A DNA stretch of 63,995 nucleotides, counting the filler, from Piedraia hortae CBS 480.64 (taxonomy: Eukaryota), in NCBI GenBank assembly GCA_010093745.1. It is 14 parts of 13 records of this genome, joined end to end, with 100 filler letters (N's around TTAATTAATTAA, not from the genome) between each part and the next. Parts side by side here need not be neighbours in the genome. Positions count along the whole stretch, not along the records: positions 62,337 to 63,995 come from MU006088.1; 13 more parts are not named here. One strand, given 5' to 3'. The notes beneath the pieces are model-generated. The model worked only from the letters and a program-made list of their open reading frames with translations, had not been told where the DNA came from and searched no databases. The position numbers and the translations under genes are program-made. Each line of letters begins with the position of its first letter. The first letter of the stretch is position 1. Positions 8,601 through 63,995 of the stretch are shown piece after piece.

Positions 8601-9083
8601 GATTTATGCGGGAGGCGTCTATTGAATCCTGGGAAATGAAAAACGTTGGTCAACAGAATACGTGTATGTATGACTACAAAGAAATGTGCCCTCATGCCAA
8701 GGCGCTAACCGCGCACCACTGGCCAGGCATGTGCGTCACGTGCGACGGAACTCCATCACTGGTCTCAAGGCCTCTCGCTGGCACGCAATGTTTTGCACAG
8801 TCAATCCCTGTATCTCGCAATCATGCGACCCCAAACAACACGCTGCCAAATTTAAGTTTGAATTAGATGGTATGTGCGAGTGAGAACGATGGATGGAGAG
8901 TAGAGGTGTGTGTACAAGTGAATATAAGTGTATCTATGAGGGGACATCAGAGATTATATTCTGGGCCGGTAGGCCAGTGCGAAGCCTTGTATGAAGAGTC
9001 ATCAATCGTATGACCGTAAGCAAGTTGTCATACATGCAGTAAGACCGTCAGCATGCAGTCTAACTCCATGACTCACCTCAAGC

Positions 9084-9184
9084 AGTAGCAGGGCGCATTC
9101 ACCATGTCGCATGCAACATGACCCTGAGGAAAACCTCTGTCAGGACAGGACCCATGGTGCAGCTGCTGGTGTAAGAGGTGTCGC
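9084..9184. repeat. Dispersed repeat of about 100 bp, second copy at 58492-58593
   Basis: Shared core ATTCACCATGTCRCAT...ACATGACCCTGAGGRAAACCTCTGT...GGTGC.GCTG.T.GTGTA.GAGGT.TCGC. Confidence 0.7.
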
Positions 9185-11039
9185 GCAGTGGCATCATACG
9201 CTAATAGCAACGAGACTTCATGCCAACAAAGTTCAAGGCAAAGAAGGCTCTACTCCTTAGAACTTAACCTACAGCGTTCCTACTCAGGCTTGTGTGAATT
9301 TCTACGGAGTTCGGAAAACTTGTCATACAGTTTCCTGGCATAGGAGGATAGCTACAATTTCACATACGCCAATATACAATATCAGCCCTCTTCTTTCTCA
9401 TGCTCCTACGGTGGCATGTTCTTGATGAAGCAGGATCAATGGTGGAATGTAGTGTGGTATGCGAAGTGTGGCAGATGCGTTTGCGTGTGCGTTTGTCTGC
9501 TGAAAGCTAGCATTGAGTACATGCCCAGGGAGCCCATTCTGAATCGTAACGTCTTGCTAAAGATACGCGCTCGCATTACCTCACCGGCAAGGAAGACTCC
9601 ACTGTAAATTAGAAAAGACTGTAAGGCCCTGGACACCAGCTACTTGTCAGTGAACCAACCAATCTTTCACCGAGATCCTCATGCTATCATACATACCCGC
9701 GAGTTAGTCTTTTTGAGAGTTCAGCAGAGTCGACAAGCGATTGGCAGTTGGATTCCTTCTCACAAATCACTCCTCTCACGCCTACCGCTTTCTTGTCTCA
9801 AGAGATTGGATTGACACTCTATCAGTGCAAGTGATAGGTCACTATTAAAAGATTCCCGATGGTTGCGATTCGAGTCATGGCATTGGATCAAGATTCAGGG
9901 CCTTGTCCGTAACGTCCATATTGTCACCTGAAGAAGATAGACATCCTCGACAAACCGAAGGGGAAAGATAACTGAAGTGGACTGGTGAATATCCGCAACA
10001 CAGTAGTCCCGAAACAAAGGACAAAGCTATCATATGCCCTCACATCTACAATCGCAAAATTAGCTTAAAAACACGTGTAAGCCATTAAAATCAAACTCAA
10101 AGACAATATCTGACAAAAAAGAACTCAACGGCCGTTAGCTCAATCTCTCATACGTCCAGCAACCCACCGATCCCTTCTATCATGCCATCCCAAGCAACTT
10201 TCCCCCACAGTCGTTTCAATCAACCCCCTCTCCCAAAAAACAGGATCGCACCCCCTCACCCCCCTCACTCCCGAGCATGGAACCCACAACCCCTACTAAA
10301 CCCCATTGCCAACATACCTCCTAGTAATCCCACCTACCTCTCGGATAAACCCCAAACACAAAGATACAGCGTGCCACCCGTATTCAAACTCCCCACCAAC
10401 CTGCCTGCACAGACTTTTCATCGAGTGCAACACGCCCAGTAATAACTCCAGATATTCAACACGTAGCTATATCCAAGCTTCTTAGACTTTGTGCAAAACC
10501 GATCTGAGCCTGCTCCGCGCGGGTTTGGTCGTTTTTTGGCGTGATGAGGGTGTAGGATCATACAGGGAAGGAGCTTCCACGGATTCTATGCGCTTTGATG
10601 TTTGGATAGAACAACGGTATGATTTGCATGTGTGTTTTACAGGAAGGGTTGGCGATTTGTTGATGGATTTTGAATGTTTTTGAGCTGTGGAACGGATTTA
10701 GCGTCCTGAATTGGTTACATGTTTATGGGTTTACTGGTCTGACTAGTTGTCGATCAGGGGGAAGGACAAATAAGCTGAAGCTTATAGTAGGAATGTCGGG
10801 ACATGATACTCCTTCGTGATGACTGTGCACTGACAGGAAGTGAGGATAGTCAAACCCGATGGTTCATTAATCTATCAATGATCAGTCGAACTGACGGAGT
10901 CGCTTTACTTAACCTTACGCAATAGTGTTTGTACCTATTATTGCTCACACGCAGCAGGGCCTTTGAACACAGTGGACATTAATATTTTGATAGAAGCAAG
11001 TTGAATCCGCACCAATCGCCTCCGTAAAGGTCATGATAA

Positions 11040-29732: not shown

Positions 29733-30778
29733 TTTGCTTTTTTGTTTTATTGCATTTTATGTCTATATATGTCCCTATTGGGTGCAAGACGGCGGGGTTA
29801 AACCCCGCCGTTCAGGGTATAAGCCACCTAACCGATCCCACCTGTCACTTTATGAGCTTAATATATTCTGTGTCTTCTTATGCGTTGCGGCCGGTCGTCT
29901 CGTCTTGACTTGGCAGCTGGCGCTGTGGGCATATAGAGTTGAAGAAGTTGGTGTGTTTGAGGAAAAGCTGGAAGGCCTGAGCTCCGTCTGCGGTCAAAAG
30001 GACCCACGAAACGCCTAGACGAGGGTCTGAGCATCTCAGCGCCCCTGACTGCCTGCGGCCCTTTGCGAAATTTCCGTTGCCGGTTCTGCACGCAACAAAG
30101 ATGAGACAGGATGGGGCGAGAGAGTTATAGCTCTTTCGGCGGCTTGGTCGATATACCAATTGCGAGGTCTTGGTATGACCTAGGCGCATTCCCTGCCCAC
30201 CATGTTCGCATAGGTCCCACGTGCGATGCCCGAGCAATGCGCCTAATGTGAGGGTGTGAAGGTTGTCTGAGGCCTGGCCCTCTGCTGGGATGTCTCGCCG
30301 CTCCGGCTTTGGCCACAGAGTCGGCTACCTCATTCCCTGCTATGCCTGAGTGTCCGGGCAGCCAGTGTACATTGATTTTGCCGGGTTGGACAAATGCCAT
30401 CCTTTCGCGTGACTGCCATCTTTCGGCGAGGTTACGGAACTCCAGGATTGAGGCTTGACTGGTGTCGGAGGGCATCGCGAGGCCCCGGAGGCAGTCTGCC
30501 CCTCCCTGCTTGTCGAGTAGGACGTGAGCATTGTCGGCCAGATGCGTGCAGGTGCGGCCCATAATGGCGTACAGAGCGGCCAGAGCGTCCTCTACCTCTG
30601 TATCATACACTTCGCATTGAGTGCCTAGAGGTTTCGCCTCGGTCGCGACTCTGTGGCCACCCTGGTAGACGATGAACCCGTATCCCGTCCTGCCATCTTC
30701 AAGTTTCGAGCCGTCTGTGAATGCGAGAATGTCCTTGGGACTGATGTTGTTTAGAAATGGGAGGGATGAGGGGTCCAA
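29733..30778 (-). mobile_element. 5'-truncated LINE (Tad1-like): RNase H domain, C-terminal region, 3' UTR and A-rich tail
   Basis: AFTDGSK, EVYDTE, VHWLPGHSGIAGNEVADSVAK, ACRTGNGNFA; hairpin at 29789-29811; A-rich tail about 29733-29760. Confidence 0.88.
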
Positions 30779-31031
30779 TTCGGCTCCAAGGTTCTACTTG
30801 TAGGAGATGGGAGAGGGATCAGGTCCAAGAGGAGAGGTCTCGGGCAAGGCGGGACGAGATCCACAGTTCTGTTACATCTTATGCGTCTTGGATGGATTGG
30901 TGTGAAGAATTTTCAGCTTCACGTGACTTGTATCAAAATCGGGTGTACAACGAGCAGAGTCAGCAACTCAGAGACGCCTCAGCATCGCACATTATTCATT
31001 TATAAACAGACCATCAGTCCTTTACAGCCAT

Positions 31032-52584: not shown

Positions 52585-54886
52585 GTGCCCGCCATGGGCG
52601 CAAGGGCGAAGCATTGGAAAGACAAGGTCACGCATTGGAAAGACAAGGCGAGGGATTTGGAAGAGAAGGTGATATCGAAGTTGTCAACTTCACCCACGCC
52701 GCCTCCTGTTCCCACGCCACAACCCTCGTCGCCACACAGTGCGACTACCCAAGCCGCAGGTCTAGGAAAAACACCAGAAACACCCTTCAAGGACAGGGAC
52801 AGGCTACTGCATGATGCTTTAGACTATCTTCCAGACGATGATCGAAATTTTATTAAAGAGCAACTTTATTTGATGAACGATCCTGCGCGAGACGAGGCCG
52901 GACTCCTGGCTTTGAGAGAACGATGTCAGAAGAAAAAATCTGACTCGTACTGTGATAGGATGAGGAAAATCACTGGTCAAATTATGCACTTCGCGCCGGT
53001 AATTGATGTGGCGACGAATGTTCAACCGGAGGTGCTCAGCCTGCCGTGGGCCGGCATTCGCTTTCTCTTGATGGTAAGCAACTGTTCTGCGATGACAACT
53101 AATAGTAACCCCATTCCTCCAGGTGACTCAGAAGGCCCATGAACATAGAGAGGCGCTTTTGGAGGGAATCGAAACGACGCTGGACACTGGCATCCTCCTC
53201 GACGTATACTTTGACGTATATGGCAAGCTCACTTGGACGCCGGCGATTGGGGGTTTGTATCGCAGTATCGTCAAGCTATACGGCCACATCCTTAAATTCG
53301 TGGCACACGCCGAGCACACTGGCGACATGCCCGCATGGGAACGCCTGATACAATCTGTGGCTAACAACCTCATTCCAAACTTCAAGGAAGGATACAAGGA
53401 CCTTCTGGAGGACGTTGAGCACTACAAAGGGGCTTGCGATAGCAAGCTGGAAAATGACCAACGGCACCGGGTCGACGAGCAATTGAAGTCACTGAAAGAT
53501 GACCTGCAAGCGATAGAGGAAGGGGTCAAAGGTGTCCAACAAATACTAGACCTGAATGCTCTCAAAAGTGCTGCTGAGGCGACCTATGATTGGACAGGCG
53601 GCTTGGAACTAACTTTGTGTCTAGGCAAAACCAGGGAGGATATCATTAACGACATAGTGGACTGGGCCACCACCGCCGGAGAACAGAGGGTATACTGGCT
53701 ATCCGGTAAGGCAGGGACAGGCAAGTCCACGATTGCTCGAACCGTTGCCCACGAACTGGAGAGCAAAGGGCACCTGGTAGGGAGCTACTTTTTCAAGCGA
53801 GGCAAGGGTGAGTTGAATCAAGCAAGTAACCTTTTCCCTACTGTTGCCCGTCAAATGGCCCACTTCATGCCTGAAATTAGCGACAAGATTGCCGCAGCCT
53901 GCCATGACTCACCTGCTGTTATTGGCAAGCCATTGACAAGCCAGTTCGACGCGCTTATCAAACAGCCGCTTTTGTGGTATAGCACAGGTTTTGTAACACC
54001 GGATGTTAGGGTCATCGTGATCGATGCTCTTGATGAGTGCGATGCCAAGGAAGTGATCGGTCAAGCCATGACACTTTGGCCTACACTTAATGACCACACT
54101 TCCATGCACTTGAAAGTTTTCGTGACGAGTCGTTCAGATAATGAAATCTCGGTTACGCTCGGTCGGTTAGAGTCAAAGGATCTCCGGCACGAGAAACTTG
54201 AGGACTTGCAAACGACTACTATCAAACAAGATTTGACTTCGTATTGCGAGTACGAACTCAAGAAGATTCGCGAGAAGCGAAACAAGGGTCAAATCTCTGC
54301 TGAACTAGACGATGACTGGCCAGGAGAAGACGTTGTCAAAAAACTCGTGGAGATATCTCAGCCACTGTTCATCGCAGCTTCCACCATACTCAAAGACGTG
54401 AGTACCAACCCACGACGACTACCACAGTGGGTGGCCCGGGTCAACTCCACTGGTTCGAAAGCATTGACCAAGATCTACATGGACATTCTGCAACAAGCCA
54501 TTGACTTGGATGAAGAGTGGCACGACTGGTTCGACCAAGTCATCAAACCAATTGCTCTTCTACGTTCCCCGCTCACCCTCCCGGCGCTTACTGATCTCCT
54601 AGCAGAAGGAAACATAGGGATTGTTGCAGATGCCCTCAACCCTTTGAGTTCAGTCATCGAATTTCCCAATACCGTGGAAATGGAAGCGGGATCTCCGGCC
54701 AAGGTCCAGATATATCACGAGTCTTTCCGGGATTTCCTTCTGGACCGAACCTCCAAGGACGAACCGCCGTTCTGGTGGGTTAACAAAGAGGAGACACATG
54801 GCGACCTCCTTGCCAGATGCTTGGAGTTGCTCCAAACCAAGCTTGGCCGCAATGTGTGCAAGCTGAAAGATCCAGCAACGGAACGC
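52585..54886 (+). CDS. Fungal NLR-like NACHT protein (HET-E/NWD type), intron 53074-53122, 3' end cut by contig end
   Basis: N-terminal LPWAGIRFLL helical domain, CLGKTR, Walker A WLSGKAGTGKSTIA, Walker B IVIDALDEC, VTSR, LFIAA, HESFRDFL. Confidence 0.92.
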
Positions 54887-54986
54887 NNNNNNNNNNNNNN
54901 NNNNNNNNNNNNNNNNNNNNNNNNNNNNNNTTAATTAATTAANNNNNNNNNNNNNNNNNNNNNNNNNNNNNNNNNNNNNNNNNNNN

Positions 54987-56760
54987 CGTGGCCACTGGCA
55001 TGACTAACGCGATGGATTTGCCAAAGAGTTCCTCCTGCTTCTGGCGCAGCTCCTCTACTGGAATGTGGTGCCGTTTAAAAAATTTCACAATCTCGGCTGC
55101 TTCCTTCATTAACCGGGAGAATGGCGCCAGTTTAAATTTGTCCATAACCATCAGATCGAACCGATGGGCGTTGCATCCAATGGGATACATGGTAGGAAAC
55201 TTGTGGACCACGCTTTCGACCGCACTCTTCACATTTGAGGCCGTGTCCGTGCAAATAGCGTTAATCCGCTCCGGACCAATCTCTTCGATGGCCTTGATTA
55301 ACTATGTGGCCAGATACGCACCGATGTGCGGATTAAACTCCGTTGCCACTGCCTTGTAAAAAAATGACTGTCCATCGGGAGTGGCCAGGAGATTGTTGCT
55401 GAGGGGCTCGTTCCGTTGGTTAGTCCAGGAGTCCGTTACAAGCGTCAGTCGTTTTCTCTCCTCCCCCTCGAACAGGACGTTGCTGACCCGTTGTTTGAGC
55501 CTTTCGTACGAGGCATTGGGCATGGGGCCAGCAAGCTGCTTACTATTTGGTAGGGAGTGTTCAGGATTAAGCGAAGTGATCCAATCACGGAACTTTGGGT
55601 TGTCGAACAAGACAAAAGGGAGCCCCAGCTCGAACATGATATCCGCTCCCTTTTGGTCTAGCATCAATTTGCGCTCATTGGCGAGCGGCTCAACGGAGGG
55701 CGTAGATGCATCTGCTTCCAACGGAACGTCGGCCGCTTCGCCAAACGCCGTCGTGGCGGTTCTTTTCTTCGATTCAAACTCCTTGGCATACACTTGAGTC
55801 AACGTGTTCGCATTCCTTGGTATGGGCCATCCTTCGCTTTCTGTTGTTGTTTGTCAATGACTTTTGGCAAAACTTGTAGGTCGCTGTGGGGCGTGGCACG
55901 TTTGGGACATCCCAGTAGTGGTACAACGGGTCTCTGTATGTTCGCGTAATTGTTAAAGTCGGAAGAATTTGGTGTGAGGTGTGTGCGTCAAGAGTTGGAC
56001 AAAAACTTAGCTGAGCAAGAGAAATGTGGGAAATCATACGGGAGGAGGGGGGCGTTAATATACCCATAATCTTAGGCTCAAGTTCGCGACTATCTACTGT
56101 TTGATACTATTAACTCTGTTTGATGAAGATCGCCATGTATCAAACGAAAAGTTTGGGCTCTATTTCTCAGACTTGACTGGACCAGTGGACAAAGCCTGGC
56201 ATAGTACAATGAAGTTTTGCGCTTCTCGTTTGTGCACCGATGACATGGAGCCTATCATGGCCATCGTGAGTATCGGTAACCAGGTAAATTTGTTCCTCTC
56301 TCACAAGTTTATCGGCACCTGTGGATGAAACGTGGCGTAGAGCCATGTAATTTGCGCTTCAGGCTTTCGGCACCACCAGTCTGAAGGCCATCACACGTCC
56401 GAGAATGACCATTGTGAGCATTGTTCACCAGAGAAGATATGCTCCTATCTCCAAGGTTTATCGGCAACTGTAGATACAGTCGGGCGTAGCACCATGCAGT
56501 TTGTGCTTCACGCTTTCAGCACCACCAATTTCGAACTTATCACGGCCCGGCAACGTCTGATCATGACCCGTTAGCAAGTCTCAACAGAGGTGAAGTCAGA
56601 TCCATCTCCCTTTTGGCACAAGCCAAGTTGGCTAGTGTGATCCGGCACGTGATCATTAGCGGTGAGAGCAGTAAATTTACAGGTGGTTAGCAGTAAATTT
56701 ACAGATAATTTACATGTCTCATCAGGTGAGCTGTAAATTTACCGTAAATGCCGATCCCTA
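54987..56760 (-). mobile_element. hAT transposon, 5' half: terminus TAGGGATCGGC at 56760, decayed transposase about 55900-54987
   Basis: BED-like finger relic, GLPFVLFDNPKF, TLVTDSWTN, TDTASNV, CNAHRFDL; subterminal GTAAATTTAC repeats. Confidence 0.82.
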
Positions 56761-62128: not shown

Positions 62129-62336
62129 GTCGCGGGCTATCCTATCCTTATAACTGTGTTGTGCCTTACGGAAGAGCTAACTACGCTATGGGCTGGAGGT
62201 GAGGTGTCGGGTCACGTGGCTGCGATATGGTTCCGTNNNNNNNNNNNNNNNNNNNNNNNNNNNNNNNNNNNNNNNNNNNNTTAATTAATTAANNNNNNNN
62301 NNNNNNNNNNNNNNNNNNNNNNNNNNNNNNNNNNNN

Positions 62337-62562
62337 CCTTGGCACCATCGCCGTAGCCGAGCCCCTCGACCAGCCAGGCGCGGAAGTACTCGAAGTCCAC
62401 CGTATGCTGCAAAACCTCGAGCGGATCTCCCTCCTTGCCCAAGGCATCAAGATGGTCGCTCAGACTGAACAGGGACTTGGGATCCACCACGGCTCTCCAT
62501 CATCGCTCCTGATCAATGAATCACCATAGCCCCCGAAACGCCATCGGTTTTTGCGGGTGTCC
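62337..62562 (-). mobile_element. Bacterial IS5-family element, left end and transposase N-terminus (GTG at 62490)
   Basis: End GGACACCCGCAAAAACC; LFSLSDHLDALGKEGDPLEVLQHTVDFEYFR resembles IS5-group transposase N-termini. Confidence 0.82.
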
Positions 62563-63407
62563 AGCTCGGGAAACCCTGGGTCGTCGTCAGGATCGGCTCG
62601 AAAGATGTGCCACGAGTTCATCTTCGCGACATCAATACGCGACGGAATGGTGTTCCCGCCCCCGCCCTGAGACGGGCGCGTGCTAGCCCAGTCTCCAAAT
62701 GTCAGATCGGTTTGCTGAAATCGCTGGCGGGCCGCAGCGTAGAGCCTGCGCTCCGTACCGTCCTCTTCCTGGTCTCCGACAATGTGGGTGAAGCTGTCTG
62801 GAAAGGAACTCGACATGACTACTACTTCCGCTTCAGGAAGAGCTGCTACAACTCTTTCTATGACGGGAATCGCCCATGCCTCCAGGTCCAAATAATTGCG
62901 AGACCACCCCGCGTCTACAATGACCACCGTATCATGTGGAAGCGGAGGCAGCCTAGTTATCAAGCGTGACAAGGGAACAGTCGCATCGCGCCTCTGATGT
63001 ATTATCAGTCCACGATCAAGCCTCTCAGCATTTCCGATTTGACGAATGAGAACATCTGCATTGGCTGTTGGCAGCAATACAGGGGTGGCATTGGCAAAGG
63101 ACGCCACCACATCATAGTAATGTGCGTAACCGAGTCTCTCATCGAACAGAGCATCAAACTCGTCTTGAGCCGGCCTCTTACCGCCGTGCCGGTAACGATC
63201 AGAGTCCAGAGCAAATCCGAATGGATGGTCCTCTATGGTTTCTCTGATTTTCCGTAAGGTGAACTCAAAATGGGAAGCGTTTGGCCAAGGACGAGCGGAA
63301 AATACGGGGAACAGGCTACTTTTAACAGACGGGTACAATGCGCGGTAGGCTTCGAGCTCAGCGACTCCCGTCTTTAAAAGCGGAACATATTCCCTGAGCT
63401 GTAGCAC
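62460..63407 (-). CDS. Beta-family protein (P4 beta-like, PF14350-type); native C-terminus replaced by IS sequence after about aa 281
   Basis: N-terminal YVPLLK...E..A, DAGW, SSSFP, FGDWAS..P...P.RID motifs; GTG start 3 nt after the upstream stop. Confidence 0.7.
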   Translation of the reverse strand: MLQLREYVPLLKTGVAELEAYRALYPSVKSSLFPVFSARPWPNASHFEFTLRKIRETIEDHPFGFALDSDRYRHGGKRPAQDEFDALFDERLGYAHYYDVVASFANATPVLLPTANADVLIRQIGNAERLDRGLIIHQRRDATVPLSRLITRLPPLPHDTVVIVDAGWSRNYLDLEAWAIPVIERVVAALPEAEVVVMSSSFPDSFTHIVGDQEEDGTERRLYAAARQRFQQTDLTFGDWASTRPSQGGGGNTIPSRIDVAKMNSWHIFRADPDDDPGFPELDTRKNRWRFGGYGDSLIRSDDGEPWWIPSPCSV

Positions 63408-63410
63408 CTA

Positions 63411-63899
63411 TTAACTAAGCCTGATCGCCATAGCTTGCCGCGATACTCCAAACTGGCTGGCTAGTTCAGCCACGTCCTCATCGTCCGGGTTCCCTCCGGC
63501 GCGGGAAATAGCCTGCGAGACTGCTCCGCTGGGCATCACGATTTCAGCGCCAAGCTTATTTGCCTCTGCTTCAATCTTAGATGACAGCTTCGACCGATAA
63601 AGAACCGAGTCTACTATACCCGTGTTTATTTTATCTTTGTGCAGAAGATAATGGGCTATCTCGTGTGCTATCGTGAACCTCTGCCGCTCCTTTGACTCAA
63701 ATCTGTTGATTTTAATGACGTGCCCATTGCCGTCAGGCTGTATCATTCCCGATATATTCATCGGGAGGGTCGCTAGGACTACACGGAGACCAAGCGCCTC
63801 CGCTAGCGCTCCGACTCTCACGGGGACGCTCTCGGTAAACTTATTCAAGATGCCCAACTCATCTTCGCTAATTCGATGAGTGAAACTGAATTTAGTCAG
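63411..63899 (-). CDS. ImmA/IrrE-family Zn metallopeptidase (M78), no N-terminal XRE HTH; likely start CTG 63899 or TTG 63857
   Basis: ISG, RQRFTIAHEIAH (HExxH), EAEAN...MP, C-terminal LASQFGVS...RL. GAGGA RBS-like sequence 8 nt before the CTG. Confidence 0.92.
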   Translation of the reverse strand: MTKFSFTHRISEDELGILNKFTESVPVRVGALAEALGLRVVLATLPMNISGMIQPDGNGHVIKINRFESKERQRFTIAHEIAHYLLHKDKINTGIVDSVLYRSKLSSKIEAEANKLGAEIVMPSGAVSQAISRAGGNPDDEDVAELASQFGVSRQAMAIRLS

Positions 63900-63993
63900 T
63901 GTATCGATCCTCGTCGTTGCTGGGCTTTTTCAAGCCCTCGATACCGGTATACGCGATATCGGAGAACATCGACTCCAGCTCTTTACGGAGCGG
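63892..63993 (-). CDS. 3' end of an unknown upstream bacterial gene (not in ORF track)
   Basis: Open frame PLRKELESMFSDIAYTGIEGLKKPSNDEDRYTD* running off the window; stop overlaps the probable peptidase start (CTGACTAA). Confidence 0.6.
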   Translation of the reverse strand, partial: PLRKELESMFSDIAYTGIEGLKKPSNDEDRYTD

Positions 63994-63995
63994 AG

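Follow-up and report, generated by a model that had tools for sequence, protein, structure and literature searches.

We observed that the last 1,659 bases of the analysed window, a stretch of 63,995 nucleotides joined from parts of the Piedraia hortae CBS 480.64 assembly, hold a real but broken copy of a putative defence cassette of a type already predicted by others. The cassette encodes, in this order, a small two-helix membrane protein (2TM), a stand-alone ImmA/IrrE peptidase and a relative of the phage P4 beta protein (beta, also called TIM-B). It probably kills phage-infected cells and, whatever the polarity of its components, an anti-phage function is quite likely on computational grounds. 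The features of this part of the window are as follows.

62237..62336, no strand: artificial spacer between contigs (a 12-mer set within N runs), with unrelated fungal DNA to its left
62337..62562, minus strand: end of an IS5-family element; its transposase gene starts near 62490 and is truncated where the contig stops
62563..62566, no strand: IS target, the 4-base palindrome AGCT; the same 4 bases stand ahead of the element in locus L001
62563..63407, minus strand: native part of the beta/TIM-B gene (281 codons + 2 nt), PF14350, cut by IS5
63411..63899, minus strand: ImmA/IrrE (M78) zinc metallopeptidase gene, 162 aa, CTG start, PF06114 (E 4e-21)
63892..63995, minus strand: 3' end of the 2TM membrane-protein gene (33 codons + stop, 63892–63993), the remainder lying past the contig end

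Thirteen identical N-flanked spacers, of which 0 would be expected by chance, cut the window into 14 pieces. Sampled ORFs of the other pieces included fungal genes for a chitin synthase, a GH72 glucanosyltransferase and a NACHT protein. The final piece (62337–63995) has intron-free, overlapping genes and an IS5 end, as in bacteria, and its closest named relatives were Sphingomonas and Sphingobium (64–66% for beta, up to about 70% for the peptidase). Given the fungal genes elsewhere in the window, this piece is, as judged from its sequence, a Sphingomonadales-like bacterial passenger in a fungal assembly. In the sequencing runs of many unrelated organisms, small shares of its DNA also turn up, a laboratory-contaminant-like pattern, and either or both of the runs X1 and X2 may be the source of the piece. 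Single-protein scans of genome and metagenome contigs yielded no locus close to the window's cassette. A public record labelled fungal (P0200, 458 aa, on a contig of 1,659 bases) joins the peptidase and beta into one protein across a stop codon; we rejected this fusion as a gene-model artefact. The fungal part of the window has ordinary content, such as a NACHT/NPHP3_N gene (53123–54934), an RNase H fragment (30128–30793) and a transposon fragment with DUF659 (55302–55802), the last of which we take to be hAT-like.

The first-pass annotation had described three co-oriented genes with tight junctions, and we found this arrangement on the minus strand. The CTG start of the peptidase gene overlaps the stop of the first gene by 8 nt, and the GTG start of beta (63407) follows the peptidase gene after a gap of 3 nt. 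L002 and L003 share the first of these junctions, the start codon being CTG in L002 and ATG in L003, and the homologues begin at the same codon. A promoter scan of L002 returned 0 sites.

The peptidase scores 75 bits against PF06114, where the cut-off is 22, and therefore belongs to the ImmA/IrrE (M78) family; the HExxH (residues 79–83) and EAN (residues 112–114) motifs are intact, and the absence of an XRE domain was also noted correctly at first. Its relatives of solved structure are IrrE and CapP. From the domain scan and the sequence, we observed that it has neither a GAF domain nor any cysteine. The C-terminal GAF domain and XRE partner that go with the ssDNA-activated CapP/IrrE type are missing. 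In the accessible text of one study, the GAF domain was tied to activation by ssDNA, and ssDNA did not stimulate a GAF-less ImmA (PMC12828697); because the cassette peptidase also lacks GAF, we consider its activation by ssDNA unlikely by analogy. A CapP-type switch would require a cysteine, according to the available part of another report (10.64898/2026.05.16.725639). The earlier description of the enzyme as a stress-activated protease is hence unsupported. In PADLOC, the peptidase matched capP (3e-31, spanning positions 12–150 of a 242-position model) and RmrA (2e-12), and the third gene matched beta (1.5e-23, against 1.2e-6 for PD-Lambda-2_C); the 17 2TM proteins scanned had no match.

The third gene had been called beta by its motifs, and its match to PF14350 (E 1e-28; 101 bits against a cut-off of 27) confirms that it is a member of this family. 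It is 81% identical to an intact 348-aa relative, P0004, over 90% of the query, and P0004 in turn is 27% identical to P4 beta over 344 columns (E 3e-24). The structural model of P0004 (pLDDT 92) is a TIM barrel and its top 50 structural matches are all barrels (Z 10.8–13.0); no solved structure was matched by sequence, and Foldseek led to generic barrels. Among the rows listed, tRNA-guanine transglycosylases (TGTs) gave the longest alignments (259–270 residues, Z 10.9–11.1, rmsd 4.1–4.3), with Z-scores tied with those of other barrels (best Z 13.0). When the beta profile was set against those of five TGTs, the result was negative (probability 0.1), and the motifs D-x-x-x-P-T-R of TGT and D-W-x-S-T-R of beta are alike by eye only. 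Two aspartates of beta, D239 and D259 (P0004 numbering), are invariant.

The 33 visible residues of the first gene are 67% identical (E 4e-15) to the C-terminus of a 124-aa 2TM protein of L002 (Sphingomonas koreensis). The upstream gene, which the first-pass annotation had wished to retrieve, was thereby reached through its homologues and is, by homology, a two-helix membrane protein, so that its identification as an XRE repressor was rejected. Its identity rests on this 33-aa tail because the strain's full gene was not recovered, no close locus having been found, and the intactness of the gene beyond the tail cannot be read. We also rejected the gene as a Gop homologue (profile probability 0.4 for the 2TM family against Gop). 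The homologue model (pLDDT 86; helices 2–29, 38–87 and 92–110) combines a pair of hydrophobic helices with a cytoplasmic helix and a tail of acidic character. Across 52 sequences of the family, Lys and Arg make up 16% of residues ahead of helix 1 and 18% past helix 2, against 3% in the loop, and therefore both ends are predicted to be inside the cell. Asp and Glu account for a median of 35% of the last 20 residues. A tail motif, F/Y-x-G-I/V, occurs in only 17 of 67 2TM proteins, and a universal cleavage motif was accordingly discarded. The family is large (709 clusters at E<=1e-10). No match to Pfam at curated thresholds or to PADLOC was obtained for 17 of its members, and none to PHROGs for the three scanned; the 2TM protein had no viral fold match, and its Atlas matches were unnamed clusters only.

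The 315-aa product of the third gene had been taken as intact, and this proved wrong. Intact close homologues are mostly of 347–349 aa, and the window's gene ceases to match its relatives of 348 aa at about residue 282; from there the ORF runs on into the IS5 element to a stop at 62460, which makes its last ~33 residues IS-derived. Read from the sequence, the protein is a beta/IS5 chimera. Parts of 14 plasmid records, several of them annotated as IS5 transposase, are 74–87% identical to the DNA from 62562 downwards, and L001, the locus with the element, encodes a DUF772 transposase domain. In runs X1 and X2, the read depth of the element was 4–6 times that of beta (73 against 12.7 and 4113 against 915), and alternative flanks split off at 62566/62568 in three runs, as expected for a multicopy IS. 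We saw no uninterrupted beta in X1 and X2, where the contigs reach just 24 bases into the IS and the bridging threshold was 31 bases. The residues removed (~283–348) comprise three helices and the conserved W299, G300, R324, N326 and H328. With the C-terminal part incomplete, this loss points to a null allele, and the window's copy of the cassette is probably defence-dead. A contaminant fragment with an incomplete first gene and a broken beta is, in any case, a poor object of study.

The conservation of the gene order, which the first-pass annotation had proposed to check, was evident in other genomes. Of 73 genome loci anchored on beta, 68 have the peptidase gene immediately upstream of it; of the five others, four are at contig edges and one holds a beta remnant. 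A 2TM gene precedes the peptidase in 67 of the 68 peptidase–beta loci, and no locus had 2TM and beta without a peptidase. The complete HExxH and downstream glutamate motif is present in 68 of the 71 peptidase neighbours of beta. Judged from these sequence surveys, the cassette is common in Alphaproteobacteria, with a patchy distribution: among 401 genomes of the family to which L002 belongs, 18 had a beta match, 11 of them at E<1e-70, and all 11 of these carry the triplet (two are already part of the alignments used for the analysis). In the remaining seven the betas are distant and stand beside different partners, 422-aa peptidase-like proteins among them. As for multiple copies, we observed in L006 (7446–14251) two triplets that converge from either side of an integrase gene and a HipA-type gene, and tandem copies with three peptidase and two beta genes in L072 (5342–10136).

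Starting from the peptidase, we found that 21 of 80 loci have a related upstream membrane gene and no adjacent beta. These beta-less pairs come from Proteobacteria, Acidobacteria, Chlamydiae and Brachyspira (within L099–L148), and their membrane proteins, some of which have a single helix, match the 2TM profile at just E 1e-11 to 0.012. PF14350 was not found in 20 of the 21 genomes, which are mostly metagenome-assembled with completeness not given (two of the 21 loci have <500 bases downstream); in the remaining genome it is encoded convergently behind sce7726. Among 80 metagenome loci, 13 have the membrane gene and beta, 11 the membrane gene without beta, 36 an XRE gene and 17 other neighbours, while three have no room. 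In a quick tree of 137 peptidases, from which 12 duplicate loci were excluded, a clade of 105 mostly membrane-linked rows (SH-aLRT 99) is apart from all 24 XRE-linked ones, and five membrane-plus-beta rows fall among the latter. This separation suggests that the 2TM protein occupies the slot of the usual substrate. Two single cases, partly from metagenome assemblies, show partial loss or disruption: L027 retains intact peptidase and beta genes and has no 2TM gene, as if the putative toxin was lost and the putative antidote kept, and in L093 an insertion splits 2TM from the peptidase. Elsewhere, in L140, L143 and L146, an XRE gene and an ImmA peptidase gene are followed by one for a ~460-aa protein, possibly as a regulated defence operon; the start of this protein presumably resembles a DEDDh exonuclease, the motif having been compared by eye.

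The first-pass annotation knew of no characterised system with this combination of genes, which was too strong in view of two reports. The first concerns PD-lambda-2, a proven anti-phage operon of a toxin-like gene, an XRE-peptidase and a P4 beta relative (PMC9519451, as far as its available text goes). Like the cassette, it has the order X–ImmA/IrrE peptidase–beta relative; its X is HigB-like and its peptidase is fused to XRE, whereas the cassette has a 2TM protein and a stand-alone peptidase, and therefore does not classify as PD-lambda-2. The same text reports that the XRE-peptidase, PD-lambda-2B, has a toxicity from which the upstream gene rescues, and that PD-lambda-2C is required for defence and not for neutralisation. 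The second is a computational bioRxiv preprint of October 2026, which in its TIM-B section predicts systems built on PF14350, with '2TM-B' among the effectors, a metallopeptidase between effector and TIM-B, and TIM-B as a constitutive brake (10.64898/2026.10.19.760177). A PF14350 TIM barrel, a non-Gop 2TM effector and a metallopeptidase between them are shared with the cassette, and the 2TM family is likely the '2TM-B' of the preprint, the two being compared by description and not by sequence. The occurrence of 2TM and peptidase without TIM-B (20 of the 21 genomes) is not mentioned in that section and is new with respect to it; the figure or supplements of the preprint may show the pair or the triplet. 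An experimental study of the 2TM–peptidase–beta triplet was not found in the literature searched, which was mostly non-subscription.

The other known systems resemble the cassette in parts. In the gop–beta–cII locus of P4 (NC_001609), the first gene is small and hydrophobic and beta is present, as in the cassette, but that gene is Gop, to which 2TM is non-homologous, and there is no peptidase. The accessible text of PMC9122126 reports that beta neutralises Gop, which is toxic without it. A convergent sce7726/cII gene lies beside the triplet in some relatives (L082, L084, L089, L125, L142 and the plasmid locus L189), and beside four of 78 beta loci tested; none was called in the closest loci, L002–L004, and in the window such a gene is not visible because of the IS. 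With no similarity to Gop in its first gene and with cII/sce7726 beside few of the loci, the cassette does not qualify as gop–beta–cII. A P4 hybrid of PD-lambda-2 and gop–cII genes has been tested, according to the available part of 10.64898/2026.02.27.708500. As a separate observation, Pasteurella phage Pmp11 (L188, 2604–4896) has a gop–beta–cII-like layout after a CI-like repressor, namely a 131-aa gene, beta and a convergent sce7726-like gene, all annotated as hypothetical. RosmerTA of phage Kita, as described in the text available of PMC10440598, is an anti-phage pair in which an ImmA protease is the antitoxin to a toxin that depolarises the membrane; like the cassette, it pairs an ImmA-type protease with a membrane protein, one that is membrane-active, and no beta gene is described there, whereas the cassette has one. 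The PADLOC models of RmrA have 357–400 positions, of which the 162-aa cassette peptidase matches the protease part alone, and none of the 17 cassette membrane proteins scanned matched RmrT. With CapP/CapH, IrrE/DdrO and ImmA/ImmR the cassette shares the M78 catalytic domain with HExxH and the downstream glutamate; it differs in that the peptidase lacks both a GAF domain and a cysteine switch and has a membrane protein as its neighbour instead of an XRE repressor.

We propose, with a confidence that comes close to an even chance without reaching it, that the cassette acts by abortive infection. The 2TM protein, with both ends in the cytoplasm, a short outer loop and an acidic tail, would act as the effector and, on release, cause depolarisation of the inner membrane. 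The ImmA peptidase, a stand-alone enzyme whose translation is coupled to that of 2TM, would serve as the standing antidote by binding or clipping the cytoplasmic helix or tail. The beta/TIM-B barrel would be an extra module for sensing infection or for producing the trigger, and would be needed for defence and not for silencing the effector. Such a cassette would amount to a RosmerTA-like core joined to the predicted TIM-B class. We infer these roles of toxin, antidote and trigger mainly from gene content: the 2TM–peptidase pair persists without beta in 20 of the 21 genomes and 2TM–beta without the peptidase never occurs, which makes the peptidase, rather than beta, the likelier antidote; the beta-less pairs, L027 and L093 together fit a 2TM toxin, a peptidase antidote and an optional beta trigger. 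The first gene as a possible toxin or substrate, as originally suggested, is thus plausible. Precedents are RosmerTA for the core and PD-lambda-2C for the part of beta, whereas the neutralisation of Gop by P4 beta, the TIM-B brake of the preprint and the toxicity of the PD-lambda-2 peptidase protein speak against the model, each as given in the parts of those sources cited above. It is possible, and we hold it more doubtful, that 2TM and the peptidase form an undescribed two-gene core, in which a large unnamed membrane family would be under a stand-alone ImmA protease and beta would be a plug-in trigger and not an antitoxin. If this is true, an ImmA/IrrE enzyme would have a membrane effector as its partner instead of a DNA-binding repressor, and the role of beta would be reversed with respect to both P4 and the 2026 preprint.

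Alternatively, as in the model of the preprint, beta/TIM-B might be the standing brake on 2TM, acting through a soluble product or by modifying its target in the manner of a transglycosylase, and the peptidase would then provide a second, activating step once the brake is lifted. The toxicity of P4 Gop without beta, the P4-like convergent sce7726/cII gene next to the triplet in the loci listed above, and the TIM-barrel model with the long TGT alignments are in line with it. We nonetheless regard it as unlikely, though it is the best placed of the alternatives, since 2TM and the peptidase are retained in genomes in which no beta was found, the window's strain retains the peptidase and the 2TM tail despite its broken beta, and the TGT comparisons are negative or tied with other barrels. 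Next comes the polarity of PD-lambda-2, to which we give a low probability: the peptidase would be the toxic effector and 2TM its membrane-anchored inhibitor, whose acidic tail would hold the peptidase until membrane damage or a beta signal. Besides the toxicity of PD-lambda-2B and its rescue, the acidity of the 2TM tails favours this polarity, as does the peptidase being the best conserved of the three genes in 36 of 36 pairs (36–65%, against 23–47% for 2TM). L027, with an intact peptidase and no 2TM, and the insertion in L093 argue against it, single cases as they are, and so does the antitoxin role of ImmA domains in RosmerTA. Finally, a function outside defence, as a membrane-stress module, with the peptidase processing a membrane-bound signal, or as a trans anti-repressor for a mobile element, would agree with the 24 related peptidases behind XRE repressors in the manner of ImmR/ImmA and with the many triplets between housekeeping genes, but is quite improbable given that the cassette has no DNA-binding partner, that both experimentally tested beta-containing systems are anti-phage in the texts cited, and that the distribution is patchy, the GC content low and the uvrA site (see below) hypervariable.

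Beta/TIM-B belongs to two validated anti-phage systems in which its roles differ, being a brake in P4 and a required accessory in PD-lambda-2. A small cassette that occurs naturally with and without beta is informative about the identity of the brake and about whether an ImmA protease can control a membrane effector.

A mobile, defence-like nature had been suspected for the cassette, and its surroundings agree. The triplet was present in seven of seven IMG/VR viral loci; among the genes nearby, comparison of 54 ORFs from six of these loci with PHROGs identified integrases, an endolysin, a holin and a repressor. One plasmid carries 2TM–peptidase–beta–sce7726 close to an integrase. Many chromosomal copies are islets between housekeeping genes and not parts of large islands. 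In 12 of 221 loci, uvrA lies 0.02–2.1 kb downstream of beta; in L002, the GC content is 52% for the cassette and 65% for uvrA.

We surveyed the uvrA 3' side in 20 (L270–L289) of the 32 uvrA-positive genomes of the genus of L002 (41 searched), scanning 68 of 95 ORFs. The first ORF was of defence type in eight of the 20 genomes, namely PDC-S60, PDC-S19, DUF6414, two OLD/AAA, two NACHT and GmrSD/NsnA; NACHT genes are counted here on our assumption that they are defence-type. A ninth encodes a ParA-type ATPase. DUF6414 is a component of Dodola, according to the accessible part of 10.1101/2024.10.26.620412. As the control site we used recA and not tgt, because tgt is about 7–15 kb from uvrA in several genomes. 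The recA 3' flanks of the same genomes (56 ORFs) gave defence-type genes in 0 of 20 and consisted of GSTs, methyltransferases and transporters (Fisher p 0.003 for 8/20 against 0/20, with the classification made post hoc after seeing the hits and the genomes being related). Raw PADLOC counts tie at 5/20 for each site, those at recA being one generic methyltransferase family, mad2, in 5/20. Within 1.5 kb, 39 ORFs fall into 35 families at uvrA, against 11 families for 39 ORFs at recA. A literature search on the uvrA 3' site as a defence locus found no paper. For most of the remaining ORFs at the site neither Pfam nor PADLOC gave a match, and these are candidate new systems. In Sphingomonas, the site looks like one from which more candidate defence genes could readily be drawn.

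Two further observations concern sites of insertion. The thiC gene is present in five triplet loci (L007, L015, L018, L021 and L032) and may mark a second insertion hotspot. In L003, the 3' end of uvrA recurs as a diverged second copy (~310 bases, 9083–9394) flanking a small gene beside the cassette, which suggests turnover of the cassette via recombination at the uvrA end.
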